A stretch of 58,355 nt of DNA, counting the filler, from Jimgerdemannia flammicorona (Eukaryota), in assembly GCA_003990765.1 (NCBI GenBank). It is 2 parts of 2 records of this genome, joined end to end, with 100 filler letters (N's around TTAATTAATTAA, not from the genome) between each part and the next. Parts side by side here need not be neighbours in the genome. Positions count along the whole stretch, not along the records: positions 29,229 to 58,355 come from RBNJ01000515.1; 1 more part is not named here. One strand, written 5' to 3'. Made by a program: the position numbers and the translations under genes. Below the pieces are notes generated by a model, which was given only the letters and a program-made list of their open reading frames with translations, was not told where the DNA came from and searched no databases. Positions 5,331 through 53,046 of this stretch are shown one piece after another; position 1 is the first letter of the stretch; the number at the start of each line of letters is the position of its first letter.

Positions 5331-5365
5331 GGCTATACAATTCTTACGGCTGACAGGTGGTACTT

Positions 5366-15000: not shown

Positions 15001-15250
15001 TTCTAATTGGATGGAATTCTAGTAGAAATAAATTAGATTTCACATTTTAGATCATAACTAAAAGTTGAGATGAAAAATCAGTTAACAGAAATATATATAT
15101 TGAATCTTGCCTTTACAATATAAAGTTAAATAATCAAAATTAATAGTTAGATGAAAGATCTGTAGCAAATAAAGAAATGACTTTCAGCTAAGGATTATAG
15201 AATTGATGGAAGTAAGCAAATATAAAAGTATGAACAAAATCATAAAATAA

Positions 15251-21463: not shown

Positions 21464-21532
<69 letters not shown>

Positions 21533-22272
21533 AGTTCATTTACATGGTGGTTTGTTCAGCATATTTAGCAATTAATTCTTATAATATTATTCCTTAAACT
21601 AAGAAACAATCTAGCTATTAACTCAATAATGTATTCTTCCAGAGTATCTATTGTTTAATACTGATGATTTATAGAAATGAGACTAACAATCAGAACAACT
21701 AATTAATAGTAGATGGTATAGAGATAAATACCATATATAATAGTCTATATAGTGATCTGTATATCTTCAAAATTAGGCAGTAGCAGTTATTTATTTTTCA
21801 GCTTAAAAGTAAGGATTTATCTTGAATTACTAGCTAATAGATACTAAGTTGTAATATAGTAGATATGGATCTTGATAAGTTGATAAGATTCTAAATTTCA
21901 TATAAAGGAGGGGGGGGAGGAAGGATATATAAAGAAGACTTTTTTGAATGAGCTAAACTGACTAAGGTTTATTTATTCTAAAATACTGAGTTATTTATAC
22001 AGATTTATATACTAATTCTGCTACTAAATATGAGGCTAAGTAACAAGTTATTTCATATAAAATTCCAAGTAGAATTTCATCTATATCTTAGGTAGAATCT
22101 TATGTGAAATCATATTTGAAGTTTGTGAAAGTAACAGCAGTTTCACTGATAATGTTTTAGATATAATATCTGCAGTAAAGGTAATTTCTACACTATAATA
22201 AATCAGAAAATCAGATTCAGATACCATGATCAAATATCTATTTCCTATTTCTATTTTATATCATATATCACA
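18634..22272 (-). mobile_element. Non-autonomous LTR retroelement (TRIM/LARD-like), ~420-bp LTRs at 18634-19051 and 21850-22272
   Basis: Direct repeats T(G/A)TAAT...TCACA. Target duplication AGAG/AAAG splits the satellite motif ATTACAGAG|TTATATTTT. Purine tract on the - strand at 19052-19062. No recognisable gag/pol inside. Confidence 0.85.
20289..21531 (+). mobile_element. Non-autonomous ~1.24-kb poly(A) retroposon, copy 1
   Basis: 9-bp TSD CAGTTCATT (20280-20288 and 21532-21540), AATAAA plus a ~65-nt poly(A). Second copy at 27969-29128. Confidence 0.85.
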
Positions 22273-23150
22273 AAAGTTATATTTTATTAAATATATATAA
22301 TATCTGAAGGAATAATATTAGTCAGAGTATATTAATTTTGCTTCTATATATATTAATTATTCTAGTAACAGGGTTTAATTTCTCTAAAATATATTATATA
22401 CTAGAATACAATCTCCAGATTTTTGAAATTTAATAAGTGTGAAATACTATCTACTAATAAGATCTGATCAGTTTATTATATCTTGAAATTTTATCTTATA
22501 AAATATTATTTCAATAGATAATTCCTCTGCAATCTATTAGTAATTATATATTTTGAGCTCTGTAGTATTATATATTAGATTTTCTCTATATAATTATAGA
22601 GTTATATTTTGCTAAATATATAATATCTAAAGAAATAATATTAGTCAGAGTATACTAATTTTGCTTCTATATATATTAATTATTCTAGTAACAGAGTTTA
22701 ATTTCTCTAAAATATGTTATATATTAGAATACAATCTCCAGATTTCTGAAATTTAGTTAGTGTGAAATATTATCTACTAATGAGATCAGATCAGTTTATA
22801 ATATTTTGAAATTTTATCTTATAAAATACTATTTTCAATAGTTAATTCCTCTGCAATTTATCAGCAATTATATATTTTGAGCTCTGTAGTAAAATATATT
22901 AGACATTTCTCTATATAATTACAGAGTTATATTTTATTAAATATATATAACATCTGAAGAAATAATGTTGATCAGAGTATACTAATTTCGATTTTATATA
23001 TTAATTAATTTCTCAATAATATTTATATTTAACTATATAGAATCTATATCAGAAGTCTAAATACTATCTACTAATGAAATCTGATCAATATATCATGTCT
23101 TGAATTTTGTTTTATAATATTATATATATATATATCTGAGGAAATAACTA
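22273..23150. repeat. Continuation of the ~310-bp AT-rich satellite
   Basis: Same unit as 13430-15000. It resumes exactly where 18510-18633 was interrupted. Confidence 0.8.
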
Positions 23151-24624
23151 AGTCAAATAGAAAGCCCGAGCCTGTGTCCCACCCTCAACTGTTGCACTAT
23201 CTGGTGTCACCCTCAAGGCCGCCGGAATTTTGTTGAGGGTGGGCAGAATTTTGTAACACTTTCAACAAATTATGTTGAGGGTGGGCAGAATTTGGTAACT
23301 ATATTCATGCGCCGCCTTCACCAAAATCGGTCACATGACCATGCGCCCAAATCCACTTAAACTATGGGAATCACCTGATCAAGTGCCCAATGCATCACAT
23401 GATCGTGCGCCCATCATATATACTATGGCTTCTAATACACCACAACCGGGTCTCACTTTTGTAACATTTGAAATTCATTGTTCACTATACAACACAAACC
23501 AATGTTGAAATTATTCTTATAAATACACTTAAGAGCAAAAACGATGGCCACACCATCTAATAAAGGCAAGCATTTTATTTTTGGAATTGTAACCTCTCTA
23601 GAACCGCAGATTCGGATGCGTATACCAGAGGTATGGAGTCTTCAATTCCGCCGTGAGAACAGGTACACTATTTCTAACCGCCGGAGGTCCTTTATGGCGA
23701 CGTACTCAGCATTGAAAATAATGCTCATCTCCTGGCAGTTTATTATTAATTTATTTTGTATGGTCACGAACACAACATTCTTGTTTGTCCTCCCTCGCCG
23801 TTTCGATGCAGCATAGAATGATGAACAATGACTAAGCACTGAAGTGACAAAGTACAGAATAATAAATGGCAACTAAGCATAGAATGACGATGATGATAAC
23901 CAAGCACAGAATGGTGGTAATGACAACTAAGAGCCGAACAACATTGATGGCGACTAAGTCAAGAACATCTAAGCACAGAACAATGAACAGAACGACGATA
24001 ATGACAGCTAAGAGGATGGCGCCTAAGCGACTATGGTGGTGACTAAATACAGAAGGATTGAAAGAACAGCAATAATGATGGCTAAGTGGAAGACGACTAA
24101 ACGACGATGATGGCGACAAAGCGATAGTGATGGCGACAAAGCGATGATGATGACGAACGACGAACAACAACAGAAACGACAGCTGAGGGCAGAATGAAAC
24201 TAAGAGCAGAACAGTGATGACAACTAACCATAAAGTGATGATAACGACGACTAAGCACTAATCACGACGAGCACAGCTAAGTGCAGAACAACAAGAGACT
24301 GGAAATTGTGCTTTGGTCGAAATACAAAGTCACGCAATACAAGACCAAGCCACTCCTTTCCACGGCCGTATTTGGCTTTGTGGTATATACGAATTCATCA
24401 ATCCCACTAATTGCCACAATACCCAGATCCTGGTCGTGTGGCCAGCGTGACTGCCTTTACTTCTTTAAAGTCAAATTTTCAACCTCTCCGTCTTCACTCC
24501 CGAATTCATGAAGTCATTCAAAGAGTTTGTCAAAAAGATGAAAAAGAAAGAGAAAGGTCAGAGTTGTTCCGCCAAGTTACTCTTTCGCAGCCTTGGTTAA
24601 CTTACATCCCTTCTCCCCAACCTT

Positions 24625-24942
24625 CACCCCAGGCACAAGCACGATGTCCACCCCAAGCACGATGTCCACCCCAGACACGATGTCCACCCCAGCCGAGGTG
24701 TCCACCCCAGCCAAGATGTCCACCCCAGGCACGATGTTCACCCCAGACACGATGTCCACCCCAGCCGAGGTGTCCACCCCAGCCAATATGTCCACCCCAG
24801 CCAAGATGTCCACCCCAGACACGATGTCCACCCCAGGCACGATGGCCACCCCAGGCACGATGGCCACCCCAGGCACGATGGCCACCCCAGGCACGATGGC
24901 CACCCCAGGCACGATGGCCACCCCAGTCACGATGTCCACCTC
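24625..24942 (+). repeat. 18-bp coding minisatellite (CACCCCAGGCACGATGTC variants), ~17 units
   Basis: Direct observation; encodes MSTPxx/MATPGT. Confidence 0.95.
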
Positions 24943-26129
24943 CAACGAAGCCGTCACCGTCGAGACCTTGAGAAAATACGACAGAGACGTCGACGGGCGG
25001 GCCGAGAGATTCCTTGGTACGTACATTATGTACATTTCTTTGAAATGCCATGTGTAGGCATAGCATTCATGGTGGTGATGTTTATTATGTTGCAGGGAAG
25101 ATGGGTTCAGACTTCCAGTGGCCCGAGTCTATGCCGGATTTTTACAGGACGTACTGTGTCACGACGATAGGCGAAGACTATTCGGATGTGCCCGAGCAAG
25201 CCCAAGTACGCAACATGCTCTTCTTCTATAACCAACTCGACGCTGGTGCTTTCGATGACCATCAGGACAAATGGATCCTCATTGACAAAGAAACTGTCAT
25301 CAAAATTACCGACGAAGAAGACAAGGATTTTTGTGGCAATCTGGACGATGAAACGTCGGCGCCCATCTCCTTGCCAGTCGACCGAAATTACTCCTTCGAA
25401 GTGAGGGCGGCGCACTCGAGTAGACAGGGAGCAGGCCCGAGCAAACAGCGTGAAGTCAAATCGGCGGACACAAGCGGAGACCCGAAGCCCGGTCGCAAGA
25501 TTGATGCTAAGAAGGGTCCTAATGATGACGAGTTTCTGGTTCGTTGAAATCTAGCGCTGTTTATATGTACAATGAGGTTGTTTACAATAAGGTTGCTGAT
25601 AACTTGCCGTTCAATAAAAGTTGAAGATCAAGGTTCGTAAGGCCGGCGGTCGCAAAGAATTCGAATTGCCATTTGAATTTATCGATCCTCCGACCAGAAA
25701 GAAATACACAACAGTCATGGATACAGGTGCTCCCAATACACGCTTGGCATTTGACGTTATTCGCCAATTTGGTGGAGTGAAAAGTAGAGAGTTCGGAAAT
25801 CTATATGTGGCATCTGGCTATGGCAACCCAAACCTTGTAGGCGACGAATCGGGCTACCTTGACAAATGGGTGCGTGTCGAAAATCTCCATTTTTGGGAAA
25901 CGGCCCCAGATAAAAAGGTCAATTCTTTATTGATCGGCAACGACGTGCTTCAGCGCGTATTGGAACCTATCATTTTTTCAGTACTGAGAAAATTTTCATG
26001 GAAATGAGCCCCGGTTTGTATAACAATTAGCCTTTCGTCTACAATCATCGTCACGAGCGCGACACATCGGCTACGACGGCGTTGCTCTCTATGAGTAATT
26101 TCAAAGTGGAATGCGGGATGAACCGGTAG
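24644..26129 (+). CDS. Protein with N-terminal (M/V)(S/A)TPxx hexapeptide repeats, a DUF5678-like segment and a C-terminal retropepsin-like aspartic protease. Exons 24644-25016, 25096-25538, ~25627-25956; last exon tentative
   Basis: Introns 25017-25095 and 25539-~25626 are GT-AG and keep frame. Catalytic TVMDTGAP and downstream LLIGNDVL motifs. The 3' end is uncertain (stop at 26007 if unspliced, 26129 if a third intron is used). Confidence 0.65.
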
Positions 26130-27968: not shown

Positions 27969-29128
27969 TACTTCTTTCTCTACTACCCTACTAGTCATAA
28001 TGGTTTAGTAGATAACCTTTCAAGTCTACTTTCCACAATTATTACCCTCTCTATCTCAGGTTGGTTTGCTGTATCTATTGCAGGGTAATGGGAGGGAGAC
28101 AATGATGATGAGTTGCTCTTTTATCAGTATCTGATTGGTGTCTTCTCCACTTTTTTGCAGTTTCTAATATCTTCAGCTGCATCTGAAGTATATTTGTTTT
28201 GGTGCAGTGCCTTCTTCCTTTTGTTATCACTAATAAGATATTGTCTCAGTATGTCATAGATTATATAGGAAGTTGGCCAACCTTAGACATCAAGTGCCCA
28301 GTATAGGTTACCTGTAGGTTCTCAGTATCTGTGGTGAGGTCCTCTGACTTTGGTGAGCTTCTTAGCAAGTGTAGTTCTGATATATGTGACTGTTTTTTAA
28401 GTGTTATCAGAATGGAAGAGAAGATGGCTATTACAGATAGAAGGAAGGATAATTACAGTGAACCAGTAGAGTATTAGGCTGGGAGCAGTCATCAGAGCTG
28501 GAGCAGGTACTGCTTTAGTAGGACCTTTTGATTGGTACAGAGTAGTTAGATGGTAGGTATCACTCTCAGCTTCTTTTGGTGATATGTGGGGTTAGGCCCT
28601 GGTCATTGGAGGGGGTCAGGGGGCCCAAGACTACCCATTTTAGGCATCTTGACTATACTTAACTAGAACTGGGAGCTGATATGGCAATATGATCAAGACC
28701 TACAGACCTGAGTAGTAGGGTATTAAGAGTCTCCTTCTGCCTCATGTATAAGTTCTTTACTTATCTCATCTAAGAAAACCAGGTCCTATCTACTATAATG
28801 AGAGTTTTTCTTTATCTGTCATCCTTCTTAGGGTAGCAGGAACTATTCTATTTAGCTTAAGTATAGCCTTATACATACATTGGAGTCTTGGGCATGCACT
28901 TTCAGTTATTGGTATATGGCTGAGTTCTCTCTAGTAGTAGAAAGAGCATGGTATGCAGAATGAGATATGGGCCACCATAGGCCCTACTGTGCCTGATACT
29001 GGACAATAGCTAGCCTAAGTTAATAGGGGGGCAGTGCTTGGTGGGTGATAGGAGAGAGTTTTGGCCTATATAGTCTAGGTTCCCTTCTAATAAAAATCTG
29101 TAAGACTCTGAGTCTATAAAACAAAAAA
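27969..29128 (+). mobile_element. Non-autonomous poly(A) retroposon, copy 2
   Basis: Same 5' start and same 3' end (AATAAAAATCTGTAAGACT...GAGTC + A tail) as 20289-21531. The tail runs into the gap. Confidence 0.8.
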
Positions 29129-29228: not shown

Positions 29229-29230
29229 AA

Positions 29231-32200
29231 GTGCATGGTGAAAATGCCAGAATTCTCGTCGATACTGGAGCAGCAGTATGCATCATCACCCAAAGGATGT
29301 TGGAGCGAATTGGATGGGGAATAGATGAAGGAACCAAAGCAAGAGTTATCATGGCCAACGGATCAGCTTCCACACCCCTTGGACTTGTCAGAGACATCCC
29401 TTTTCAAGTTGGAAAGGCCAGCCTCAATGTACCCAAAGCCGTCATGACCCCTGCAACCTCCTATGACCTGATCCTGGGAACTGACTGGTTAAGCCGAGTG
29501 GGAGCCAATGTAGATATCAAGAAACAACTCCTGGTCTTCTCCACTCATGGACAGAAGCACAAGATGCCCATTGACTCGAAAGGATTATCTAAAAAGACAA
29601 ATCAAGCCTCAGAAACAGAATAGCAAGGACACGGTGACACCCCCACTACTACTGAGGATGAAAGTGAGGCCAATTTCCTACAAGAACTAGGAAGTGATTT
29701 CGATGCCCCAAGGGATCAAGAAAGTGAACAAGAAGACTCTTTCATTGGAGTTATTAGTGTTGAAGGCCTGGAAGAAAGCATTGATAGAGCCATTAATGCA
29801 AGGGTGGTACTTGAGTTTGCAGGACCTTCTGCTCAACCACCACCACCACTGGTAGAAAATCAGATCACGCGAGCCTTTCGTCGAGGCATATGTGAACACT
29901 TCATCAGCTTCCACTCACCAAGAGATGATTGCAGCAATTGCCGAATCCTGGATCTCAAGAAGGTTCCAATGCCAGAAATTGATGACAAGGACGAATTGAA
30001 GTACGCACCATCCCACGGCCAAATACAACCTCCATCCCCGAAGACCTTCAAGAAGACCTATAAGGAAGGACAGAAGATCCTCGCCTGCCAAACATTCGGG
30101 TCCCTTACCATCGAAGGAGAAAGCAACAGCTCTTACACTATCACCTGGGCCCTCCAGATCACACAGCCCACCTATGATAAGTATCGGAAGAGATTCCCTA
30201 CCAGTAGGGAGGTCAAACAGCGAAATGAAGACTTTGTCAAGAAGGGACATTGTGATTGTGGAAAAACCTTTACCTGCTACCAGTGTGAACATCGAGATGT
30301 TCACCTCAGCGAAGATGTCTACAAGAGCCAAGTCAAGAGAAAGGATCCCACCCTGCAAGAACCTCAAATTCACTGGGCCTGTCGGAAGTGCAAAGAAATC
30401 AACCATGAAGGAGATTACAAGTTCAAGAGCAAGACCTCTATCTGAGATCTACCATTGGAAGTTCTTGCCATCATCCGCTGGTACTGCTGCCCTCATCAAG
30501 GAAAAGAAGGTATCAATCTTGCCTTCATCCTTATGAAAGCTCTGGACCCTCTAGGAAAGACTGGATTCAATTACACAAGAAACTCAAAGACAGGAGCTCA
30601 CTGGCCTTTCTTCAAACTGGAGCACATGGACTTCTCACCTACAATAGTAACAGCTGAAGCACCATTTCTCAAAGCTCAACCAATTATCCAGATCAAGCTG
30701 CTTTCACCCTGGGCACAGCCACCTCTTGCACAAACAGAAGGATCAGTTGTTTATGACCTCTGCCTCCTCTACCAAGCAAGAATCTGACCCAGAAGTACCA
30801 GGACTTTTGACCTACAGATCGCACTCACTATACCACCTGGGCATTATGGACGATTGGCCTCAAGATCCTCATTGGCAACCAAAGGAGTCACAGTAGAAGG
30901 AGGAGTCATCGATCAGGACTACCGAGGTCTCTTGAAGGTCATTATCTGCAATTCTAGTAGAACCAGCCGATTCTTCAGTCCTATGGAAGCCATCTGCCAA
31001 ATCCTGTTTATCAAGACATCACAGCCGACCATCCAAGAGGTAGACCAACTAGAAGATACCAACAGAGGACAAGGAGGCTTTGGAAGCACCAATAGAAATC
31101 TACGGACACCACCTATCGAGGTTCATTTGGCAACATTTGCTCAATTCCGACAAATGAGACCCCATATCTGTCACCAATCCGAGCAAGAGAAGATATCCTC
31201 CTGCAGTCCTACCAGCAAAAAGGCCTAGATGTGCACCTACCAGTAGAAGCAAACAACTTGATATTTGCACCATCACTAGAGCTTCAAAAGGAATACCACA
31301 TCCTCCTGGCTGAAGAACAAATTTATGACCAGATGTCACCAATCCATATCCCTATCAGAAACTTGGGCTTCGAAGTGATAACTATCCCCAAGGGAACAAC
31401 ACTGAGATATTTTGGACTACTGATAGACACCTATGAAGAAGAAGTCTTCGAATTCTTTGGAAACGGCAAGCCCTCTCCAGTGAGACTGATGGTACCAGGG
31501 AGGAAGACTCAGCAAATTCAGCAATCAAAGCTGTTGATATCGAGACAACTCTAACCAAGGACCAGCAACAACAGATACAGGAGTTGGTAGAGGAGTACAA
31601 AGATATATTTACCACCACATATGATAACTTCCCACCATATCAATATGGAGAACACCCTATACATACTGGAGATGCAAGACCAATCCGACAACAACCCTAC
31701 CGAACACCACATCATCTGATTGAATTCGAACAACAACACATAGATGAAATGCTATGAAATGGAGTCATCAGACCATCATCAAGCCCCTGGGCTTCACCAG
31801 CAATCATAGTACCAAAGAAAGGAGGATGGAGATTAGTCGTGGATTTCAGAAAACTCAACAAAGTCACCACAGAAGATACCTACCCACTGCCAAGAATTGA
31901 TGACCTCATCAATGCCCTCGGAAAAGCCAAATACATGACCACTACCAACCACTTCCAAGGATTCCAAGTAATACCCATTGCCAAAGAAGATATCTGCAAG
32001 ATGGCCTTCATCACCAGATGAGGACAGTATGAATACCTACGAATGCCCTTTGGACTCTGCAATACACCTGCCTCATTCTAACGAATGATGAACTATGTCT
32101 ACTGGGACCTCATTGGAAGAAACGTACTAGTGTACATAGATGATGTAATCATCTACTCTAAGACATTCAAGCAGCATTTGCAAGACCTCTATGAAGTATT

Positions 32201-34189
32201 CAATACCATTCGAAATTCAGGACTCACACTCAATGCCAAGAAGTACTTCTTTGGAAAACATCAAGTCGAATATCTAGGATATGTTGTCTCAGCTCAAGGA
32301 ACACATGCTGACCCCCACAAGGTGGAGAAAGTCTAGAACTACCCAACCCTGACCACAGCAAAGGAGACCCTATCTTTCCTTATGCTGGCATCCTACTATC
32401 AACGATTCATCCCAAGGTTTCCAGATAAGGCAGCACCTCTCCGAGATATCTCCAAGAAGGACCAACCATTCTACTGGAAAGAAGAACAACAAAAGTCATT
32501 CGACCTACTCAAGAAGGTCCTTACCGAAGCCCCTGTCCTGGTGCGACCAGACTTTGGCAAATCATTCATCCTGGCAACTGATGCCTCAGCCTTAGGACTT
32601 AGATCAATTCAGTCTCAGCAAGATGACCAGAAGAGGGAGCATGTTATCGAATATGCTAGCAAGGCCACGAACAAAATACAAGTGAACTATGGAGCCACTA
32701 AGTTGGAATGCCTAGCAGTAGTTTGGGCTGTGGACCACTTCCGACACTATCTCTTGGGAAAAAGATTCGCTGTCATCACTGACCATCAAGCTCTACAATG
32801 GTTGTTCAACAAGCCAGAGCCCTCAGGAATCTTCGCTAGATGGATCATGTCTCTGCAAGAATATCAGTTCACTATTGTCTACAAGAAAGGTGCTAAGAAT
32901 TCCAATGTCGATACCCTGTCAAGAATCCCACGTAACCAACAAGAAGGGAAGGAGCCCCCACAAGAGAAGGCTGCTTCCCGCTCACCCAAATGAACCAAGA
33001 ATTGTGCCTCGCCCTCACCTGGAGCCTGCACCATAGAAGCTTTAAGAAAGGAATCCAACCAGCCCACAAGTTGTTTATCCAAAGGAATTTCAAGAAATTC
33101 CAAGAAGGCGATGGCAAACTTTGGAGAGTAGAGGGAGAGCAGTATACCCGAGTTCCAAGAGAAGAAGAAATATTGAAGATCCTGACAACAAATCATGACC
33201 AAAATGCACACTAAGGAATTGGCGCCACAATCGCAAGAATCAAGAAGCAATACTGGTGGCCCAAAATGAGAAAACAAATTTCAATGCACATTCAACAATA
33301 TGATACCTGCCAAAGATACCGACAAAAGCCTACCAACAGAGCACCATTAATACCGATCACAGCACCAGCTGGAGCCTTTCAAAGACTAGGAATAGACATT
33401 ATTGGACCTCTACCAGTAACCAGCCGAGGAAGATGCTACATCCTCACTATCGAAGACTACCTGACAAAATGGCCCGAAGTCTTTGCCATCGAGACTGCCG
33501 ATGCCCAGCCAATTATTGGGATCCTGTATGATGAAATTTTCAGCCACCATGGTGTGCCCAAGGAAATCATTACAGACCAAGGTCGAGAATTTGTCAACCA
33601 AGCCATAAAGACCTTTGCGAGCAACTTCAAGATCAAGCTACGACCAACAACAGCCTACCACCCACAGGCAAATGGACTCACTGAATGAATGAACCAGACC
33701 ATCAAGTGAGGTCTCAGTAGAACCGGAGATCAACTAAACTGGGATATCTATCTACTGGCAATTCTGTTCGGCATCCGTACCTCTAAGGCAACTGCTACCC
33801 AACAGACCCCCTTCTATTTGGTATATGGCCGAGAAGCACAAGATCCTACTGAACCAGTCCAGCTAGATCTGTCAAAACGAGTTACAGAAGAGATCACCTG
33901 GTTACATGACATATGCCAGCAAGCACGAGGATTTATCGCCAAAGCACAAGAATGCCAAAAGAGGTACTATGACCACAAAGCCGACCTCGAACCCCTGCTC
34001 ATTGGACAAAAGGTTCTGGTGTACCGTACCATTATAGAAGGAAATTGGAGTGCCAAGCTTGAACCAAAATGGGAAGGCCCCTATCTCATACACCAAGTAT
34101 TCTTGAACCACACTTATCAACTCAAGACCTTGGATGGAGTTATACTCAAGACCAAGATACATCGCAACCGTATAAGACTCTACTACTAA
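29231..34189 (+). pseudogene. pol: pol polyprotein (PR-insert-dUTPase-RT-RNaseH-IN) with stops and frameshifts
   Basis: ORF fragments 29231-34189 carry all the catalytic motifs. Stops are of the TGA/TAA/TAG transition type; frameshifts occur near 31200, 31500 and 32960. Confidence 0.92.
30680..31095 (+). pseudogene. dUTPase domain within Gypsy pol
   Basis: All five trimeric dUTPase motifs: GSV(V/G)YDL, ASRSSLA, GGVIDQDYRG, AICQIL, RGQGGFGST. Confidence 0.92.
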
Positions 34190-34524
34190 AGAGAAGCAAA
34201 ACGCATTGGACAATCCTGTTCACTCTGTCTGTGTCATCTCTGCTGGAGATATGATGGACGTTTCACTCGGAACTCAAGAAAGCCAACAACGTTGGAACCA
34301 GACTTAAGCCCATCCATGTGACAGACATTGTTACTAAGAAATTACCTCAGATTACAAGTAATACTATTTCCGATGGGTTCGAACCCCCAGCCGCAACTAT
34401 GGGAGCCCTTGCCCAAGACAAGGATGGCCAGTTCTCACAAATGCACCAGCATTCTGCTCGTCCCTGGAGTTAAGACCACCCAACTCTGTGTAACCCTCAC
34501 CACTAAGGATGGCTCTAATTTTGC

Positions 34525-34534
34525 AAGGGGCAGA
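34525..34534 (+). promoter_or_regulatory. Polypurine tract
   Basis: AAGGGGCAGA immediately precedes the LTR TGTG at 34535. Confidence 0.7.
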
Positions 34535-36949
34535 TGTGACATACACAATTGATAATGGAGTACCAGTGACTACTAAGATCAGACGACATAATGGCATGAC
34601 AATCAAAAAGACAGTCTGACCCATTAGGTGATCATCCCAAAAGAAGACAAGATGATCCGAGCCAAAATGAAGACCATGTTATTTAAGGAACCATATTCCA
34701 CCTCAAGGATTGGCACCAAAGAACCAAGTACCCACCACACAATGCCTCCCATTCACCGAACCAACCAGACCTCCCGCCGCTCTATCCCTTTGCCTGGCCC
34801 AAAGACCCTGATCTTTGAAGCTATCAAGAAGGCCATCTGGCACCCAGATACTTCCGAACACTTGAACTTCTACACTGAGGACCTTGGACACTTCATCAAC
34901 TACCGGTATATAATGACCCAACAGCTCAAAGATACTACTGAATGAATGACCCTCTGGCATGACTATGAAATTGGACACCGCCTTTGCAATAAGACTCAAG
35001 AAGGCATCCAGGAAGACCTCATTGCCGAAATGTTAACCACCAGCTGGCTAATCAAGAGAGCCCTCCATGTCTATCAAATCTTCCACCATATTCTCTGGGC
35101 TATAGCACACTTGCAAGGAGTATTGGCTGGCAGCCTCTCCCGCCTTTCAACTGAAGATGCTGACTGGATAGAATCTGAAGTAGACAACACTATTGGCAGC
35201 AACTGCATTGCCGTAGGAAGCCAACAAACCGAACCTACTTAGCCAGGTTTCCACACCACCCCACTCCAAGACAACTATCAAGGTCACCTAATGAGTCTTA
35301 TGGAGATATTTGAAGGACTGCCCATTACCATAGAAGCACCCATTGGAGCTACCCCAACCACCCACCACCTTGTCAGCCACAATTCACACCTCATCATTTG
35401 GGAACCAAATCAAGAAGAAGTCCAAGAAGTTCCTGTCTTTGAAGAGGAGGCCCAAGAACTCCAAGGCCCTGCCCCTGAAGAAACCCCCTCTGACACTGAA
35501 ACTGATGAGTCTTCAGAAGAAGAAGAGGAGCAACAGAGAGTCTACCAGTCCTCTGTCTGCATTCAAGCAGTTCAGGGATTGGAAAATGTTGTTGAAGATG
35601 ACTGGCCACTTTTCTACCCCCTCACCTCTTGGCCGGCACTTCCCCCCTTTGAGGAGAGATATGATGAAGAAGAAATCACAACCCAGCAAGATTTGCCCAC
35701 CACGGATGAAGGGTACTATTCCCTCTAGAGTACTGCCCATCAGCCATGAGAACTCAGCATTTTTGTCAGCAGGTCCGAATTCAGCATTGCCACCCTCCAC
35801 AACCATTTCTGGCAACAATCATCATATCATGTCAGCTCATCCGAATCCAGTGTTGCTACCCAGTACCACTGTTCTCAGCAATTTTGTCAGCAGATCCGAA
35901 TTCAGCATTGCCACCCTCCACAACCATTTCTGGCAACAATCAGCATTCATATCAGCTCATCCAAATCCAGCGTTGCTATCCCCTACAACCCAATCCGTAG
36001 TAAACAATAGCCTGCACCTCACATCGTGCAAACCAATAGCATAAGTTCGCCACAACATAGTATACCTTAGCCTTAGTCATGCCCCTCCCCCCATAGCTAG
36101 CAAACTTGTATAAATAACCCATATTCTTAGAGTGAATAAACCTCAGTCAGCTTGTGTTTAAAAAGTAAAAAGGATTACAAAGAAACCACTGCTTCCAAGA
36201 GACCAGATAAATTCTGAGAACAAGATAACAACCTAGAGCAACAGATCGCTCAGAAGTTTGAGTTAAAGAATTTTCTCTTGCCACGGAAAGAAAATGTTAC
36301 CCAACCACTGCCATTTGAGACCCAGCCAAGGATTCAAGACTATGACTGCCACACATTCAGACCACAATTCGGACCACCATTTGAGACCCGAGACCCAGCC
36401 AAGGATTCAAGACTATGACCGCCACGCATTCAGACTGCCATTCAGACCGCGCATTTGACCACCATTTGAGATTCAAGACCCAGAAACCCAGGGATACCCA
36501 GCTAAAGGATACTCGACTGCCAAAGACCGACCCGCTGCTAAAGACCCGAACAACCACCAGGAACCTTTCAAGATTAACCAAGACGGATGAGTGAGCCGTC
36601 AACCTCTGTTTTCCTGACCTACTGCACCACGAACCGCTTAAAGTCAAGACCGTCGCCCACTTCAAATCGACCGCATATTCCGCTAAAGTTTATCACCGCC
36701 GGCACATCCAAGTAACTGCCCTCTGTTAGCAACAACACCTTTTTCCACTGAATATTGAGCCACCATCGACATCCTGAGCCAACAAACAATCTCTTGCTAA
36801 TTATCAATTACCGCATGAATCGAACGAGCTGATCACGTGATCAACGACCCGCGAACGTCACCAATGCATTCCATTATCCATCGTGCACTTCACCAGGGGC
36901 ACACATTGAGCCGTGTAGTCGAAGTTCATTATACATAACTGACACCACA
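34535..36949 (+). repeat. 3' LTR of Gypsy copy 2 (~2415 bp)
   Basis: TGTGAC...CCACA. Similarity to 4137-6559 starts and stops at these termini. Confidence 0.9.
34628..35728 (+). pseudogene. LTR-encoded ORF of unknown function (copy 2), ~366 codons
   Basis: ORFs 34628-34945, 34946-35242 and 35291-35728 are one frame. Its two internal stops are sense codons (CAA, CAG) in copy 1. Confidence 0.72.
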
Positions 36950-40987: not shown

Positions 40988-42629
40988 CACCTTTCTCTGC
41001 TATAATTCATGTTACACACACTTTTACAATATACTTTCAAGTCATTTATTGGAGAAAGAGATTAAGGCAATATCAACCAACAAGTAAGCTAATATGCATA
41101 CTAGGTCAGGTGGATCTGGGGCCTTCAACTGGCAACATGTCAGATGAGGTTATGGGCTTGGGATGGGGTCTTTCAGTGGTCTGAGTGGGCAGGACAGCTT
41201 GGGCAGTAGAAGTGGTGTTGGTGGTGTGGCTGGAGGGCAGGTTGGAAGGAGCTTTGCTGAGGAATGGTGGTTGGCTGGTGGGGACTTGGGGTGGGCAGGC
41301 AGGAGGGAAGGAAAAGCAGAAGGTTGGAGAAGCTGGAAGAGCTGGAGGTACTGGACCTCAACCAGTGAGTGGTAGGGCTGGTGGGGTAGCTGCTGAGAGT
41401 AGAGATGGGACTGCTGATGGTAGTGTGACTGAGAATCTGGAAAAAAATCCAGATGTAACTACTAATGGTTGGGTTGGACAGATGGGCCCAAAGCAGAAGA
41501 GGGACCTGGCTGATGGTGTGACAGGGCTGGCAGTGGTACTGTTACTCAAGATGTCAATTTCAGAGTTTGTAGTTACCTTGTACTTCTGGGGCTTGATAGT
41601 GACTGCAAGGATGGTCCTGGGGCTTATCTTATAGCAGGTGGCTGTAGCAGTCTCAGTGAAGTTCCTGAAGGGGCTGGAGGGGGTTGAGGTGGGCTTTGAG
41701 GAGGTAGGCCTACTGGATGAGGTACTGAAGACTGGAGTGGTGGTTGGGGAAGTAGTGGTCCCTATGGTGCAATACCTTAGGTGGGACCCCAGTTACTGGT
41801 GAATGGGGTGCCTATGGTGATGAAGGTTGAGACTAGGAGGAGGGTGGAGGAGGTAATGGTGGAGTATGGCAATATGGTGGATATTGGCTTCCAGGTGTGG
41901 GAGGGGACTGCAATTAGGACAGGCGATGTTGATGTCAGGATCAGACTAGCAGAGAGAGAGGCTACAGGGAAGGTGAGTGACTGGCCCTCAGTATTGATGT
42001 GGGGGGCATTTGTCTGCAAAGTGTTGAGGGTGAAGGGGAGTGAAGAGAAGGAGGAGGATTTGTTAGAAGTATTGGAGGAGTTGAGTGGTGCAGTCAAATG
42101 ACAGACAAAGGCCTGGAAGCTCTATGTGGAGTTGACACATCTGGAGATTATTGATGGGAAGTATATTTACACTAACAAGAGGCAGTGGGAGAGAGCTCAA
42201 GGATACAAGAGGTAGCAGGAGCTACTGGTGAGCATAAAAGGATAGGTAACAATAGAGGTTGGGGGCAATGAGAAGCCTGAGGGTATGGAGGAGAGTGTCT
42301 GGGCTGGCAAGAGCAGGAGCATTAGGGAGGAGGGCCTGGGAGGAGCTGAGAAGGTGCCACACAAGAACCTGTTCAATGAGGGGGCTCGCTCGAGACCACA
42401 GGTCAATGAATGCAGGAAGGTCTTGGGCATATAGTGCCCAAAATGTTTCAACACCGTTGTTTGTCTAAGGCGTGTCTAAATCAGGCATAGTCTTTCCTTT
42501 TTTGGTACTAGCGCGGTAGGTGCATTACTTCTATATGTAATTCTACCATTCACCCAACATTACTTCATATGTGCTTTACACTTATGCTTTTGCACTTCCG
42601 TACATTCATATGCATTTCATTACATTACC

Positions 42630-44081
42630 ATGGTCCTCTCCACAAATTCCTGCCTTTTGTGTTGATACGACCCTTCCCATACGTCAAAGGGCCAACACGA
42701 CCTGGGCTCCGCCACCTGCCCTTTCCACTCGGATGTTAATTTCATCGAGCGTGTGCTCCATTTTCTACAAGACGACCTGGAATCTGATAGCGAGAACCCC
42801 AATGTTGCTATCCTCGTGGATTATCTCACCACCCTCCCTGATCACTCTACTTCCGCACCCCGCCGAATCACGCGTCTATCAGTGCATGCCGCATCCAAGG
42901 CTCCCGCTAGCGCTACGGCAGCCGGACCAGCTTTTTTCAGCACACCGGCCTCTGATGTTTCCATCGAAGCCAGCATTGCTCAGCTCCAAGAGCATGCATC
43001 CACGCAAGACCATCGGTTCGATGAACTTTTTCAGCTCTTACACTCTCGCCCCAACATCGTATCTTCGGCGGCACCGGCTAGTGTAGTTCCTGCTATTTCT
43101 GGTCAGGACGCGTCTCCCATCATCGATCAAGCCTTTATCGATTGCGCTACTGCTTCTCTTTCGACAGTTCTCACATCCCCATCCTCATCCCAGCCCTTAC
43201 CAACTATCCCTTCGGTTGGGTCCACCGGCATTCACGGCCCTGCCAGTAATCCCCAGGGTGAGTCTATCCCTATACCTCCTTCTGTCGTCTCTGCCCATAC
43301 CATTGTCTGAGGCATCAATCTCTCTTTAAAATATGCCCATGTTATTCAACGGCTGTTAGCCGTGGTCATCGACAATTCGTTCACCGCCGTGTCGCTCGGC
43401 CATTTCTTGGAGCGAAACGTCGTTTCTATCGGTGGTCTTCCTGACACTCAATTCATCAAAACGTTTGACGAATCGGGTGCCCGGATCATTCTTTGAAAGC
43501 CGCCATCCCTTATCAAAGATCTTCCAGACGTCCCTGCTTTCCTCGCCACCCTGCTTACGTATTTCAGCATTCTTCATGATGCATACCCAGGCCTCACCGA
43601 TCCTACTCCATTCTTTTCATATGCCGCGGATTTTATTTTACTATCAACATCGTCGTATTGGTCCGCGCTTCTTGATTATCATGTCTCCTTTTACACAAAA
43701 CGACTGACGGAGATCGCGAACGACGGTGTTTCTCTGGTATGGTGCGAGCACTGGGCCCGGCGCGACCCCGACCTCTTTATGATCCTTAGTCTACATCAAC
43801 ATCCGCGAACTCCGACCTCTACATCTAATCCGCTTAAGCCCTTCAAGTCTCGCAACGTACAACAGGGACTACATCTTACTGATGGCTGCTCTGCTCCATC
43901 TACCGAGAAAGCCTCTCAACGGTCTACTTGTCGGGCATACAACGGCATTCTATTCGATGGATCACCCATGAAGGATCCTGGGTGCAATAGAAAAGGATGC
44001 CCTTATGTGCATTTCTGTTCTCGCTGCAATGGTGATCATCCGTGATATCGATGCTCCCACAATCCATTGTCTCGCCCCTAG
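42630..44081 (+). pseudogene. Ngaro ORF1 (gag-like) with C-terminal Cys/His finger
   Basis: One frame with a few TGA stops, ending CRAYNG...GCNRKGCPYVHFCSRCNGDHP*YRC. Confidence 0.8.
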
Positions 44082-44114
44082 GAACTCACCCCCATTTATT
44101 CTTTACACATACCC

Positions 44115-45923
44115 ATGGCCGCTCCAAATACCCTACTCCGTCGCCAATTTACCACCCCTCTCAACAAAGCGGCTCAAGACATTCTATGTCGTTTTCCTCT
44201 TCCTTCTTCCACTCTTCGCCCTGTCACGTGGGCGCGTGAGCTCTAGTTGTATCCTGCCCCGTGTGTAGCTCAGGCTGCCATCGCCGCTATTACTCAAGGC
44301 ACTCTTCTCGGCTTTGATGGGCCTCGTCGCCGCCTGCTGTCCTATAATCATCGCTCCGCTCTCGACTACCCGGAAGCGATCATGTCTGACATTGAGCGGG
44401 AAGTCGCCGCCGGTAGAATTTGTGGCCCGTTTTCATCCCCTCCGTTCGAATGCTTTCGCTCATCTCCTCTCGGCGCCGTCGCGAAGAAGAATTCCAATAG
44501 TGCATGGCGTCATATTCATGACCTTTCTTGGCCCCATCACAGCGATTCGGTGAATGCTGGCATAGATACCGACGCCTTTTGGCTCTCTTACATTAAGTTC
44601 GACGAGGCTTTGGACTTGGTTCGTCGTTTTGGCCAGGGATGTCTTTTATCGAAGATCGACCTCACCGATGCATATCGTCATATTCTCATCCATCCTACAG
44701 ATTGGGAGTTATTGGGTTTCGAGTGGTCGGGGCAGTTTTATTTCGATCAGTTCACTCCTTTTGGCGCATCCTCGTCACCATTTCTTTTCAACCTTTTCAT
44801 GGAACTTCTCGCATGGATCACCCACCATCACGACATATGCGCGCTCATTCACTACGTCGATGATTTTCTCCTCGTTTCGCCGCTGCTCCGGCCGTCTGCC
44901 CTCTCCGACCTACATTTACTTCTTGCCATCTATCATCATCTCGGCTGGTTGATTCAAGAGCGCAAGGTTGAAGGCCCGACAACGTCACTCATCTTTCTGG
45001 GCATCGAATTGGATACAATGGCTATGGAAGTCCGCCTGCCTCTTGGCAAGCTTGACACATTGCTCACCACCCTTCAGCAGTGGCTATCGCACACGTTATG
45101 TACACGCCCTCAACTGCAGTCTCTTATTGGTTCCTTGGTATTTGCCTGTAAAATCATTCCGCTGGGCCACCCATTCCTGCGGTGGTTTATCGACCTTCTT
45201 TCCGGCAACGCCTCATTCCATATCTCACTGAATGAGGAATTCTACGCCAACATTCATTGGTGGCTCGAATTCCTACACCACTGGAATGGTATTTCCGTTA
45301 TACATCTGGTGGCATGGTTCCACGAGCCTGATGCACAATTATGGATGGACGCCAGCAGGATCCAAGGCTTTGGTGCACATTTCAATAGCGAATGGTTTTC
45401 CGCTCCCTGGCCTCCCGATATAGCCTCGCGCGACATTCAGTTCAAGGAACTTTACGCCGTGGTCGCTGCCGCTGTTACCTGGGGCACTCAATGGCGTTTT
45501 CACCGTATATTGCTTCATTCTGATAATCAGGCGGTCGTCGCTATTATCAACTCGGGCTCTTCACACAACCCTCTTCTGCTGGAACTTCTCCGCCAGCTCT
45601 ATTTTCAAATGACGCATCACGCTTTTCAACTTTGCGCCGTATTCATCTCGACGTCTGATAACGGCATTGCTGATGCTTTATCCCACACTGATCTTCCTCA
45701 TTTCCGTCGTCTTGCCCCTTACGCTCAGACGCTCCCAACCATGATTGGTATCATTTGCATTCCGTGCTTCCACCCGCCGTTGCCTTCTTTTTGTGGTTCG
45801 GACTGGCAAAATCAACGCACTGCTCATACTCTTTGGGACAACGCAGCTTCCTCCAATTCTGCAATCTCCACGGCGGTAATCATGCCTCCAGCGGGCCTTT
45901 GCCCGCATCCGAACTGGTGCTAA
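44115..45923 (+). pseudogene. Ngaro ORF2 reverse transcriptase/RNase H
   Basis: SPLGAVAKK, KIDLTDAYRHI, PFGASSSP, HYVDDFL, MDAS, KELYAV, SDNQAVV, ADALS. One TAG near the start (44244), then 558 open codons. Confidence 0.93.
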
Positions 45924-46762
45924 TGCGGTGGGTCTATAGCTTGGCCTTGCGACGGCTTCAACCATCCACAATCAAATGTTACCTCTCAGCCATTCGTTCT
46001 CTACACATCGACTCCAGTTTTGCCGATCCGTTCATCGGTCTTTACCAACTTCCCTGAGTGATGCGTGGCATGAAGCAGTGGCTAGGCATATGCCCAACTC
46101 GACCTCGGCTTCCTATCACGCTCAGTATTCTTTGCAGTCTTATCAGTTTGCTTTGGCTATCTGATTATGACGATCTGCATCTTACAACCACGATGTCGCT
46201 TGCATACGTCGGCTTTCTTCGCGCCGGCGAATTTACGTGGAATGGGTCTTTCGATCCCGTTTCCCAACTGTCCCGCAGCTCTGTGGTTTTTCAACCTAGC
46301 ATTGCTGACCCCACCCATATTATGCTCACCCTGCCAGCCTCTAAAACAGACCCGTTTCGCCAGGGTGCAACACTTTTTATCACCAAAACGGATCCCGCCA
46401 CACCATGCGTTATATCCTTACTTCACCTTCTTTACCTGGCGCACCCAGCCCCACCCGACACCCCTCTGTTCTGGCATTCCGCGAACCGATCGTTCTCTTG
46501 GGCCTATCTCGTTAGTCGTCTTTGCATGTTACTTCCACGGATTGGTCTGAATCCGCTTCTTTACGCCGAGCATAGTTTTCAGATTGGTGCAACATCTGAT
46601 GCCGCTGCAGCCGGTTTATCTGATTACGAGATTCAGATGTTGGGTCGGTGGGAGAGCGTGGCATTTAAAGGCTATATTCACATGCCTATTTCTCGCATTC
46701 TCCACCTTCGGGCTTCGTTAACTTGTAATACTTGTTCTGTTACTCATATTACTTGTGGTTAA
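45755..46762 (+). pseudogene. Ngaro ORF3 tyrosine recombinase
   Basis: TIKCYLSAIRSLH, FLRAGEF, SKTDPFRQG, HSFQIGA (HxxR arginine changed to Q), GRWES and GYIH. One internal TGA at 46055. Confidence 0.92.
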
Positions 46763-46793
46763 CGATTTCCTGTTCCTTTTTTTTTTTTTCTAC

Positions 46794-47158
46794 CATGTAG
46801 CCCATGACACCAGCTTATTCCGGGTCCCGCGTGGCGTGCGACACCAGCCTTTACCTCTCCTCATCGGCCTTACATCACCGTGCGGCTCACGACACCAGCC
46901 TTTAATCCACCCACCTCAGCCTCTTACCACCATGTAGTTCGCGATACCAACCTTTTCCGACATTGCGCGGCTCGCAACACCAGCCCTCCTTCTTTTCGTT
47001 ATTGCGCAGTTTGCAACACCAGCCTACTCGGACCCCCACGCAACTCGTGACACCAGTTCTATCCCTCGATCGCTGGGCTCATTAAATCAGCTTCTTGGCT
47101 GTCGCACGATTCGCGACACCTGCCCTCGGTTTTAACTGTGTGGCTTGCGACACCAGCC
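46794..47158 (+). repeat. Nine 22-bp repeats (consensus CGCGCGGCTCGCGACACCAGCC) separated by unique 11-44-nt spacers
   Basis: Copies start at 46794, 46828, 46879, 46931, 46964, 47003, 47037, 47103 and 47137. Confidence 0.88.
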
Positions 47159-50100
47159 ATATCATCGACATTGGGCGCGGCCTTTCTATTAAGCCTTCGG
47201 CGCCTTTCTATCATTTACTCCGCTCACATTTCCACATCCATAACCCCCTTTTTACTTCATTTGGGCCGAGTTCTTTCTTTCGGTGCTACTAACTCACACT
47301 GCTACACATCATCATCCCGCACATTTTACATATAACATTTGGGCTGGTCTTTTATACTGTGTGTTTCCACCCAAATACAGAACAATCGATCATTTATTTG
47401 AGGTTTCTTTCCTAGGATTTTGGGGTGATGCATGGTCATTTCGGTGACACGGAGTTATTGGTGTTTTATCATGAAGATTGATATCACGTGAGCGTAGCAT
47501 AGTTGACATTATGCAAAACGTAGTATAGTTACACCTCCCTAGCATAGATCGACATTACGGCAAAAACATTGAATGAGGGAGCTCGCTCGAGACCACAGAT
47601 CAATGAATGCAGGAAGGTCTTGGGCGTATAGCGCCCAAAATGTTTCAACGCCATTGTTTGTCTAAGGCGTGTCTAAATCAGGTGTAGTCTTTCCTTTTTT
47701 GGTACTAGTGCGGTAGGCGCATTACTTCTATATGTAATTCTACCATTCACCCAACATTACTTCGTACGCGCTTTACACTTACACTTTTGCGCTTCCGTAC
47801 ATTCGTATGCATTTCATTACCACCCACCTCACCCTACATATATATACATAGTGGTTGGGCCAGTCTTTTATACCATATGTTTCCACCCAAATACAGAACA
47901 ATCGATCATTTATTTGAGGTTTCTTTTCTAGGATTTCGGGGTGATGCATGGTCATTTCGGTGACACGGGGTTATTGGTGTTTTATCATGAAGATTGACAT
48001 CACGTGAGCATAGTATAGTTGACATTATGCAAAATGTAGTATAGTTACGCCTCCCTAGCATAGATCGACATTACGGCAAAAACATTGACTGATGGCACAT
48101 TTGAAGTATAGGACCTGGTCATGGAGGACACTCTTCCTCTAATTAGGCAGAGTCTGGCTATAAGGGGTCAGGGAGCAGAGGATGTATTGATGAAGAGTAC
48201 TCAGAGGGTTCACTTTGGGGTTCCTGATATGGTGAAAGGCAGTTGGGTGGTGGCAGTTGGTGAGGTAGCTGGTGAGGATGAGTTGGTGGATGTCTTGGAG
48301 AAGAGATGGGATGAGACTGCCAGTGTAGGGGTGGACACCATGATGCTTGATGCAGGGAGGCTGGAGACACCAGGAGGGAAGAAGGTGGGGAACCTGCTGT
48401 AGATGAGCAAGGTGATGGATAATCTTGCAACTGAGGAGTTGGGGGAAGTAGATCTGCAGGTGATGCTGGAGGAGCATTGGGCATGGATCCTTTATAGAGA
48501 TGGGGTAGTGGAGGCACTGAAGGCAGAGATTCTTGCAATTTTTCTGGAGGAGGAGGGATATGAGGTTGATAAGGCAAGGGAGGCTGAGCTGGTGATCATT
48601 GCTGGTAAGTGAGCTGCCTACTATTGGACTGAGCAGCATGGGTTACAACTCTAGCAGGAGGCATGCCTGGAGTATCATGAGGACTTTGAGGAAAAAAAGG
48701 ATGGGGCACTGACTAAACTTCTGGTAAGGCTGGAGGCCCAGGTGACTGAAGAGAAAGCGCTGACTGCAGAACATAATTTGGACTTGGCACAGGAGGAGTT
48801 GTATGCAGATTTGTAGAGGATGTGACTGATCAACAACATTATGCCTTATGAACAGTACAACTAACATTTTCTCTCTGAATGTGAATGGGTTAAGGGATCT
48901 GGGTGGTATAGGAACACTTTTACTTGGCTTAAAGATTGGAGGCTGATCTCATTTTACTGCAGGATGTATGGTGTAAGGATGGGGATGATTGAGTAGAGTG
49001 GACTAGAGAATTGGGAGGGGATGCTGCTTGGTTTACCAAGGTAGCGATTCTGGTGAAGAAGGGTTGAGGAGACTTGGGTGGAGTCAAGAGCTAGGGCAAC
49101 CAGTTGGTCTGAGGAGATTGGCAGTAACCAGGGTGTGAGCTGGTGAGGGTTGGCTCCTGCTACTGCTCTGCAGTTAGGGGTGAGAGGGTTGTATGGATTA
49201 GGAAGCTCCTGAAGGAGGGTATTCTCTTGGAGGAAGGAGTAGATGTTCTGGGTGGTGATTTTAATATAGTTCAGGATCCACAATTAGATAGGACAGATGG
49301 AGGGAGTGATGTAGGTGAGAGGAGTGGTGGTCTGGATGTATGGGAGAAGGTGGAGAACTTAGCTCCTTAGGGGATATGGGCTGAACATACTTGGGTGATA
49401 AGAGGGTCTATACACACTGGGTGAATGGCTTGGATATAAGGATTGACTGGATTCTGACAGCTGAATGCTGGGGTGTTGATGTTTGGAAGTCTTTAGAGGT
49501 GGAGTGGTGCCTATGGTCTGATCACTGGGAGCTATTAGGGTAGGGGTGGTTTGGGGGGAGTGAAGATGGACCTGGACATTTGTATCTTAACTCCTCCCTG
49601 CTGACTGAGAAAGAGTTGTGGGACTCATGGGTAGAGGACATCCAGGCAAGGATTCATGTTTGGAGGCATGAGGGTTTATCAGTGGGTATCCATTGGATGA
49701 GGTTGAAGGAGGTGGTAAGGGTCTATTGGGGAGAAGCTGGTAGGGAGACTGGGAGACAGAGAAGGAAGTATATAAGGTATGCTTCTAATAGGCTGAAGAG
49801 ATTGCAGATGGAATGAGTTGATTTGCTTTCTTTTGAAGAGGTAGAGGATTGGAGGTTAGAGCAGGTAAAATTGGAGATAGTAGAGCTGCAACAGGTTTTG
49901 AGAGAGGAGGAGGAGATTCATTTGAAAGAAATAGCTACCAGGCTATGGTGGCAGGGGCTCAAGGAGGGAGAGTAGCCTACTAGGTACTTGTCTAGGCTCC
50001 TCAAAGCTAGGAGAGTACAACATCAGTGAGATGGGGTCTTTGATGCTGAGGGAGATATGGTGCATGGCACACAACAGATCCTAGAGGTTTTGAAGGAGAG

Positions 50101-53015: not shown

Positions 53016-53046
53016 GTTGAGGTCTCATCTACAATGTCTACTCAAT

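Follow-up and report, generated by a model that had tools for sequence, protein, structure and literature searches.

A probable accessory gene inside the long terminal repeat of a Ty3/Gypsy retrotransposon from Jimgerdemannia flammicorona

Main

Retrotransposon long terminal repeats (LTRs) are treated as non-coding control regions and are masked by annotation pipelines. Can such a repeat nevertheless hold a protein-coding gene? The question is raised by 58,355 nucleotides (nt) of DNA from Jimgerdemannia flammicorona (GenBank assembly GCA_003990765.1), here called the window, in which parts of two records are joined by 100 filler letters (positions 29,229 to 58,355 are from RBNJ01000515.1). The window contains two copies, A and B, of a retrotransposon with a 2.4-kb LTR. 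A sequence-only reading of this DNA had proposed that the U3 (unique 3′) side of the LTR encloses an accessory gene of about 366 codons with an undescribed product. Stop statistics and distant homologues both support a genuine gene lying wholly on that side, and we consider it probable that the frame at 34742–35728 is a real, element-encoded accessory gene (open reading frame 3, ORF3) of 328 codons. The frame is coding and conserved, lies inside the LTR and is independent of the pol frame. The gene copies and their LTRs are as follows.

34742–35728, plus strand: LTR-borne gene of copy B, 328 codons and a TAG stop, broken by TGA at 34943 and TAG at 35240
5366–6352, minus strand: LTR-borne gene of copy A, broken by TGA at 6337–6335, TAG at 6172–6170 and TAA at 5980–5978
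34535–36949, plus strand: 3′ LTR of copy B, 2415 nt with TG...CA ends; the alignment with copy A begins and stops exactly here
4137–6559, minus strand: 2423-nt 5′ LTR of copy A; a primer-binding site (PBS) and gag come next (inverted-repeat search and full alignment)

The frame is open once decay is undone

All five stops that break the frame are private to one copy. Those of copy A correspond to positions 34757 (TGA), 34922 (TAG) and 35114 (TAA) of copy B, and at each of the five the other copy has CAA, CAG or CGA, just as the sequence-only reading had described. When C-to-T and G-to-A changes were undone, the restored two-copy state had 0, 17 and 19 stops in the three forward frames, so the consensus is indeed fully open in this frame and in no other; before restoration the other two forward frames carry 17–23 stops across the same 1.1 kb. 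Among 5000 Markov-1 simulations of the same composition, none was free of stops and 0.04% had three or fewer.

A chance open frame in C/A-rich, T/G-poor DNA, or conservation of U3 control DNA mistaken for coding, would have to explain these numbers. The strand skew (A 31%, C 29%, G 19%, T 21%) does lower the frequency of stops, and a second frame is open at 35334–36044 in copy B only. Given the absence of any stop-free simulation, together with the protein homology at 27–33% identity (E down to 8.7e-12) and the least conserved third codon positions described below, we find such an explanation hardly credible.

The decay itself has a clear signature. Between the A and B arms 111 of 125 differences were transitions, and 47 of 78 restored CpG sites had changed, against 7–14% in other contexts. 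This concentration at CpG marks the decay as of the methyl-CpG type and not as repeat-induced point mutation (RIP) of the CpA type. Both window copies of the gene are dead, mainly through C-to-T and G-to-A decay at CpG.

Homologues of the protein share its start and motifs

A search with the X-read translation of copy B (P0001) returned two proteins or clusters at E ≤0.01 among 1204 candidates. One of them, the P0003 cluster, has six members, including intact proteins of 325, 324 and 331 amino acids on short metagenome contigs and one of 290 amino acids on a 19.4-kb contig. These close homologues are 76–78% identical to the window protein; in tblastn, P0003 matched the gene of copy B with 77% identity over 314 amino acids (E 3.5e-150) and that of copy A with 74% over 314 (E 3e-145). 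P0011, P0014, P0013 and P0016 matched the copy B gene by tblastn at E 1e-16 to 1e-23.

When 1.84 billion representative proteins were searched with a profile built from the close family, 7 proteins had E ≤0.001, among them distant matches in the N-terminal domain (P0011, 8.7e-12; P0013, 1.3e-9; P0014, 1.6e-8), and a broader profile limited to proteins of near length added nothing to these 7. The distant homologues are 27–33% identical to P0003 and keep the same start and the same order of motifs: MPP or MPA followed by arginines and a PLP motif, then LN..DLGH, W.EYEI, AKK.HQ.F.H.P, L.DNPDQ.L and F.GPPI, and finally an acidic tail. Every full-length member starts at the MPP methionine that corresponds to window position 34742. 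This common methionine shortens the gene from the roughly 366 codons first proposed to 328 and a stop.

DNA of these relatives was scarcer. A first scan of metagenome_contigs with the close homologues matched 121 stretches and confirmed none; a scan of the same collection with the distant subfamily confirmed one locus (L001) of 196 stretches, and none was confirmed among 173 stretches of viral_contigs or 67 of genome_contigs. A search of sequencing runs gave six rows with small shares only (0.05–0.15), with no RNA run among the rows listed. As judged from these searches, the protein forms a small orphan family known only from metagenome contigs.

In a distant relative the gene follows pol

L001 is a contig of 1535 nt with an intact homologue of 291 codons at 376–1251, within an open frame of 325–1251, whose protein is about 31% identical to the window protein. 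The first ~70 nt of L001 align with the tail of pol in the window, and the peptide PLP.TRMA.SH.CTS is common to both; the alignment thus places the gene directly 3′ of pol in this relative. Over 280 codons, identity between window and L001 at the three codon positions was 0.46, 0.56 and 0.33. Third positions are the least conserved, which is what selection on a protein produces; since the two sequences had been aligned as proteins, the library-wide E-values carry more weight than the codon positions.

Could the frame instead form the C-terminus of Pol and be translated through stop-codon read-through or a frameshift? The sequence-only reading had noted that the gene is in frame with the integrase end and had left a fusion open. 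The shared frame, which extends to the pol tail, is there, but four in-frame stops common to both copies lie between, and in L001 the gene does not share the frame of the pol tail (that of 3–152). The common frame in the window is a coincidence, and a fusion with pol is unlikely. All full-length homologues start at MPP; a search of 7422 candidates for longer, fused forms gave none, a weak argument by itself. Altogether a Pol extension seems to us highly improbable.

A host gene fragment captured by one lineage and without a role for the element deserves similar scrutiny. Capture of genes by LTR retrotransposons is documented in the available parts of a review (PMC7264820), and neither a retroelement domain nor any relation to the element's own gag was recognized in the protein. 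Against capture, no cellular homologue was found among the 1.84 billion representatives, where the only matches were the 7 on short contigs, or among the 7422 longer candidates, and the gene is open, with the same start and in the same place behind pol, at ~31% identity, far more divergence than a recent passenger would be expected to show. We regard capture as very unlikely.

The element and its LTR

The boundaries of the LTR given by the sequence-only reading (TG...CA ends, polypurine tract, PBS) and the identity of 34535–36949 with 4137–6559 were borne out by the full alignment. A direct-repeat search of the window did not find the claimed LTR pair; the match is an inverted pair from two copies. 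In the inverted-repeat search 5365–6559 matched 34535–35729 (1195 nt, 90% complementary, gapless) and 1–1566 matched 29229–30794 (94% complementary). Because the offsets of the two pairs of arms differ, A and B are two separate, oppositely oriented copies. Neither shows both of its LTRs within the window, and the block is recognized as an LTR from its 5′-end position in copy A and its 3′-end position in copy B. On the minus strand copy A runs from the 5′ LTR (6559–4137) through a TGG-type primer site, gag and protease (PR) and then off the start of the window.

1–4136, minus strand: copy A internal region with leader, CCHC-bearing gag and PR, truncated where the window begins; 1566–1 is 94% identical to 29229–30794 of copy B
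about 2315–2268, minus strand: zf-CCHC of copy A (Pfam, E 1.6e-6)
about 1573–1298, minus strand: aspartic protease of copy A (domain search)
29229–34534, plus strand: internal part of copy B, 5′-truncated with an abrupt start in PR and with many stops and frame changes
from 29231, plus strand: PR of copy B (gag-asp_proteas, domain search)
about 30722–31090, plus strand: deoxyuridine triphosphatase (dUTPase) of copy B (PF00692, E 4e-28), between PR and reverse transcriptase (RT)
about 31809–32285, plus strand: RVT_1 of copy B (domain search)
about 32475–32864, plus strand: RNase H of copy B (RT_RNaseH, domain search)
about 33161–33322, plus strand: Integrase_H2C2 of copy B (domain search)
about 33377–33664, plus strand: rve of copy B (domain search)
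after rve to about 34500, plus strand: conserved pol tail of copy B (domain search and L001 alignment)

The element is an LTR retrotransposon of the Ty3/Gypsy type (Metaviridae): the domain order PR–RT–RNase H–integrase (INT) fits, and TG...CA ends, PBS, polypurine tract and CCHC gag are present, with the two LTRs on different copies. Its full length would be about 12.7 kb, from 7.9 kb of internal sequence pieced together from A and B and two LTRs of 2.4 kb. No Chromo match at E ≤0.001, the mark of a chromovirus, was found in any frame of 29229–34551 or in 33710–34186, although decay could hide one. The dUTPase of copy B is a second accessory acquisition of the element besides the LTR gene. 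Between the canonical end of integrase (GPY...LYY, then a stop) and the LTR lie ~340 nt (34190–34534) that encode the PLP.TRMA.SH.CTS peptide conserved with L001 (1–152), and the deepest metagenome cover falls at 34335–34441; to judge from this conservation, the stretch may be an unrecognized C-terminal module of pol.

The LTR and its borders contain the following features.

34525–34534, plus strand: polypurine tract aaggggcaga, adjoining the 3′ LTR (read directly)
4118–4133, minus strand: candidate primer-binding-site-like TGGGGGCTCAACTGGG of copy A, starting 4 nt past the LTR end at 4137 (read directly)
34550–34627, plus strand: leader with four in-frame stops (34550, 34574, 34589, 34625) common to both copies, separating the pol tail from the gene
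34680–34686, plus strand: TATA-like TATTTAA, which precedes the ATG by 62 nt and recurs in copy A (6414–6408, minus strand)
35753–35978, plus strand: 121-nt tandem repeat, 1.9 copies, directly 3′ of the gene in copy B (repeat search)
4933–5316: in copy A, a longer array of 54/82/136-nt period (repeat search)
36061–36150, plus strand: conserved LTR core with TATAAATA at 36109 and AATAAA at 36135; 96% A–B identity versus 75% either side, and a peak of metagenome depth
36317–36458, plus strand: 1.9 copies of a 73-nt tandem repeat, within the LTR's variable 3′ third (repeat search)

Identity between the two LTRs is uneven: 90% with no indels in the first 1.2 kb, 96% in the core and ~75% with 27 gap events in the remainder. 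The internal overlap of A and B is 94% identical despite that ~75%, and this mosaic points to exchange between subfamilies by recombination, or to repeats on the R/U5 side that turn over very fast. An Rfam search of the window gave no matches.

The protein has a basic start and an acidic tail

Its sequence predicts a protein with a short basic N-terminus, a helical domain of ~200 residues that carries the conserved motifs, and a variable, strongly acidic tail. The first 40 residues are net positive, the middle consists of near-neutral helices, and the last 100–130 residues have a net charge of about −30 interspersed with aromatic and aliphatic clusters (WPLFYPL, DLIIFED, VLNF). None of six family members has a run of at least 16 hydrophobic residues, so the protein is neither env-like nor Sag-like in type, and an env-like ORF3 was ruled out. 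A duplicate of gag was likewise rejected (hhalign against the element's gag: probability 0.09%, E 0.59).

The product is undescribed, as had been supposed, with no recognizable family in Pfam, the PDB or the ESM Atlas. Ten family members searched against Pfam gave only two single-member matches (E 0.073 and 0.25), and a sequence profile search of the PDB gave none at E ≤5. In the ESM Atlas P0003 had no usable match, and the best score for P0014 was 0.88, to an unnamed cluster. AlphaFold models reached a mean predicted local distance difference test (pLDDT) score of 43.3 for the whole of P0003 (10 rows) and 48.1 for the N-terminal domain of the L001 protein (12 rows), which is unusable; the two agree only on a mostly helical N-terminal domain.

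A basic N-terminus with an acidic, hydrophobic tail is the look of nuclear activators. The transactivator or anti-silencing role named in the sequence-only reading has the charge and helix pattern in its favour, and we hold it as a tentative suggestion that the protein might be a soluble regulatory factor of the element, for example one that activates the LTR in trans or counters silencing by the host. A different role, for instance as a cofactor of the particle or of integration, is possible.

Candidate promoters and possible expression of the gene

Within the LTR, 207 nt precede the gene and 1221 nt follow it; every complete copy of the element therefore carries it twice. Its expression would depend on which LTR promoter serves it. 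The core at 36061–36150 is a candidate genomic promoter and poly(A) signal: TATAAATA is the sole strong TATA box of the LTR, AATAAA follows 26 nt later, and both lie in the best-conserved core of its 3′ half. The gene (34742–35728) precedes this TATA at 36109, with the U3/R border placed by inference. Were 36109 the genomic promoter, the gene would lie in U3 and, as is the case for retroviral U3 genes, only the 3′ LTR would contribute it to the genomic RNA, at its 3′ end.

Upstream of the gene, ATG 34742 is the first ATG after TATTTAA in both copies, and TATTTAA aligns with TATAAAAG 80 nt before the ATG of L001. This arrangement suggests TATTTAA as a candidate promoter of the gene's own, which would be usable in 5′ LTRs and solo LTRs as well. 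The protein could then be made from a short mRNA of its own, running from the TATA-like box to the AATAAA of the LTR, from a subgenomic RNA derived from the 3′ copy, or from both; we rate the two routes about evenly.

Two readings of the position follow. In the first the LTR would be a self-contained cassette (promoter, 328-codon orphan regulator, shared poly(A) signal), duplicated with each insertion and left behind in solo LTRs, so that LTRs could supply in trans a factor by which the family is activated or its silencing by the host is blunted; we think this doubtful. In the second the gene is real but would owe its place in the LTR to an accident, in which the polypurine tract moved upstream and an additional ORF between pol and the LTR was swallowed; this ORF would be expressed from a spliced subgenomic RNA of the 3′ copy only, leaving 5′ and solo copies as silent passengers. 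ORFs between pol and the 3′ LTR are a common arrangement of retrotransposons in the available parts of PMC7264820. In L001, moreover, the gene follows the pol tail on a 1.5-kb contig on which LTR borders are not visible, and the sole strong TATA lies behind the gene. The TATA-like box before the first ATG, at 62 nt in the window and 80 nt in L001, speaks against an accident. We take an accidental position to be a possibility that merits serious thought, although we would not favour it.

Weighing the accessory-gene reading

Several observations weigh against an accessory gene in the LTR. The ratio of non-synonymous to synonymous substitution rates (dN/dS, Nei–Gojobori counting) between A and B, a check of the kind that had been proposed, was 0.40 in frame, versus 0.71 and 0.76 off frame, a weak signal: in a permutation that kept mutation spectrum and CpG context, 38 synonymous changes were seen for 30.9 expected (P = 0.065). 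Stops between A and B accumulated at the neutral rate (5 versus 6.5 expected in the permutation). The family is tiny, with 7 representatives in 1.84 billion, and for every relative except one there is just a protein from a short contig that gives no context. Evidence from within the genome amounts to the two window copies. The case as a whole comes from comparison of DNA and protein sequences; the structural models are unusable as support for the functional guess, and the 9-nt TATA-like motif is not significant by itself (20 of 100 shuffles had at least two matches).

Length conservation is similarly double-edged. No indel separates A from B within the 987-nt gene, compared with 27 gap events in the remaining 1221 nt of LTR on its 3′ side; the leader, 207 nt of non-coding DNA, is kept equally well (90%, no indels), so the contrast may reflect the mosaic history of the LTR and not coding constraint. 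Many diverged pieces of the family occur in soil-metagenome contigs, and of these 32 of 716 were listed, from four soil-metagenome runs in three studies. Among the listed pieces the 11 that overlap the gene are all gapless, the 792-, 619- and 506-nt pieces with 6–8% other letters among them, and gaps occur in 4 of the 8 behind the gene. Ten listed metagenome variant rows fall inside the gene, too few for a test by codon position.

The differences between A and B are mostly neutral decay after insertion, so that the dN/dS of the two copies neither supports nor refutes a gene. With this comparison weak, the case for selection on the LTR gene rests on the deeper homologues.

Other features of the window

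The window is transposon-dense throughout and holds no recognizable host gene. Direct repeats at 20321–21476 and 28002–29128, 7.65 kb apart and 76–88% identical, end ~100 nt before the truncation of copy B at 29229; they may be LTRs of another decayed element, with a bearing on the 5′ loss of copy B. Two stretches on the minus strand, 18737–18786 and 21955–22001, match the LTR core with its TATA and AATAAA at 85–90% in opposite orientation and sit in AT-rich direct repeats at 18691–18990 and 21912–22211 (D7); these core matches may be what is left of older LTRs, by now heavily decayed, from a related family. Further features are listed here.

24572–25003: 18-nt tandem array of at least 17 in-register units, in overlapping open frames at 24411–25170, within an island of 45–49% GC and with no Pfam match
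13526–15108, 18514–18708 and 22252–23001: AT-rich satellite-like repeats with a period of ~308–323 nt and 23–30% GC
42372–48095: second retroelement, with a 558-amino-acid open frame carrying RVT_1 and a weak RVT_3 (44247–45920), flanked by 250-nt direct repeats at 42372–42623 and 47569–47820 (93%) and by a further pair at 47339–47579 and 47855–48095
48000–58355: very G-rich plus strand, GC skew +0.4 to +0.56, CpG observed/expected 0.21
54320–55384: RVT_1 frame of a third, decayed retroelement in the G-rich stretch

Discussion

A conserved gene in this LTR would mean that the retroviral habit of keeping accessory genes in U3 arose also in a Ty3/Gypsy lineage without env, and the few accessory genes recorded in retrotransposons would gain an orphan protein family. 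If 5′ and solo LTRs express the gene, copy number, silencing and LTR-driven regulation of the host need rethinking. If the LTR were indeed a self-contained cassette, hundreds of LTRs could express the factor, in a counterpart of foamy virus Tas or mouse mammary tumour virus (MMTV) Sag, and LTRs would have to be thought of as protein-coding genes. Should the protein serve the element's own cycle only, it would still be a useful lineage marker and a candidate for functional study.

Among retrotransposons the nearest comparison is with additional ORFs (aORFs). In the available excerpts these are described as extra genes present across a family, of unknown function and without homologues outside elements (PMC7264820; PMC8365987), located in the internal region and mostly between pol and the 3′ LTR (PMC7264820). 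Examples are the env-like ORFs of plant Athila and Bagy2, the antisense ORFs of Grande, RIRE2 and Retand (PMC7264820), and brtn of Botrytis Boty, an additional ORF of BcGypsy1 (PMC8365987) that is classed as antisense (PMC7264820); an unspecified 'add. ORF' is given for fungal Gypsy elements (PMC2864245). The window gene is present in both copies, stands beside the pol tail in L001 and has no cellular homologue among the 1.84 billion representatives or the 7422 longer candidates, a pattern that might suit an aORF. Unlike aORFs, it is inside the LTR and not in the internal region, and it is sense whereas brtn is antisense. The phrases 'in the LTR' and 'within the LTR' do not occur in the available text of the aORF review PMC7264820, and in that of PMC11302176, PMC6673714 and a 2026 Blumeria preprint matching phrases occur in unrelated senses only.

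The rest of the element resembles fungal elements that have been described. A dUTPase between PR and RT is described for the basidiomycete element PosPlaTy3-5 of Postia placenta, with dUTPase-bearing elements also in Phanerochaete and Tuber and fungal element sizes of 4.4 to over 13 kb, in the accessible part of PMC2864245. The window element is like these in the placement of its dUTPase and, at ~12.7 kb, within their size range, a likeness by description only; no chromodomain was detected in it. In the sequence itself, the dUTPase placement and the decay at CpG are the hints of a fungal host.

Retroviruses offer the closest parallels of position. MMTV sag is a sense ORF of ~320 codons wholly in the U3 of an unusually long LTR, hence present in both LTRs, and its product is a type II membrane glycoprotein of a vertebrate retrovirus. 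That the MMTV 'LTR contains an ORF' is also stated in the part available of PMC9412291. The window gene is likewise wholly in the U3 of a long LTR; unlike Sag, its protein has no membrane run and no sequence match in Pfam or the PDB, and its carrier is an env-less Ty3/Gypsy element. The foamy virus genes tas (bel1) and bet and nef of human immunodeficiency virus (HIV) are 3′ of pol and overlap U3 only partly, and Tas, of about 300 amino acids, has an acidic C-terminal activation domain and an internal promoter of its own. Like tas, the window gene is 3′ of pol, encodes an acidic, hydrophobic tail and has a TATA-like box before its ATG; unlike tas, bet and nef, it is entirely inside the LTR, and no sequence similarity to them was found. 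In the literature available in part we met no description of a sense ORF lying wholly within a retrotransposon LTR, the element table of PMC2864245, which could hold one, being outside that part. On this basis we rate the window gene as a retrotransposon accessory gene, of an orphan family, located where some retroviruses keep theirs.

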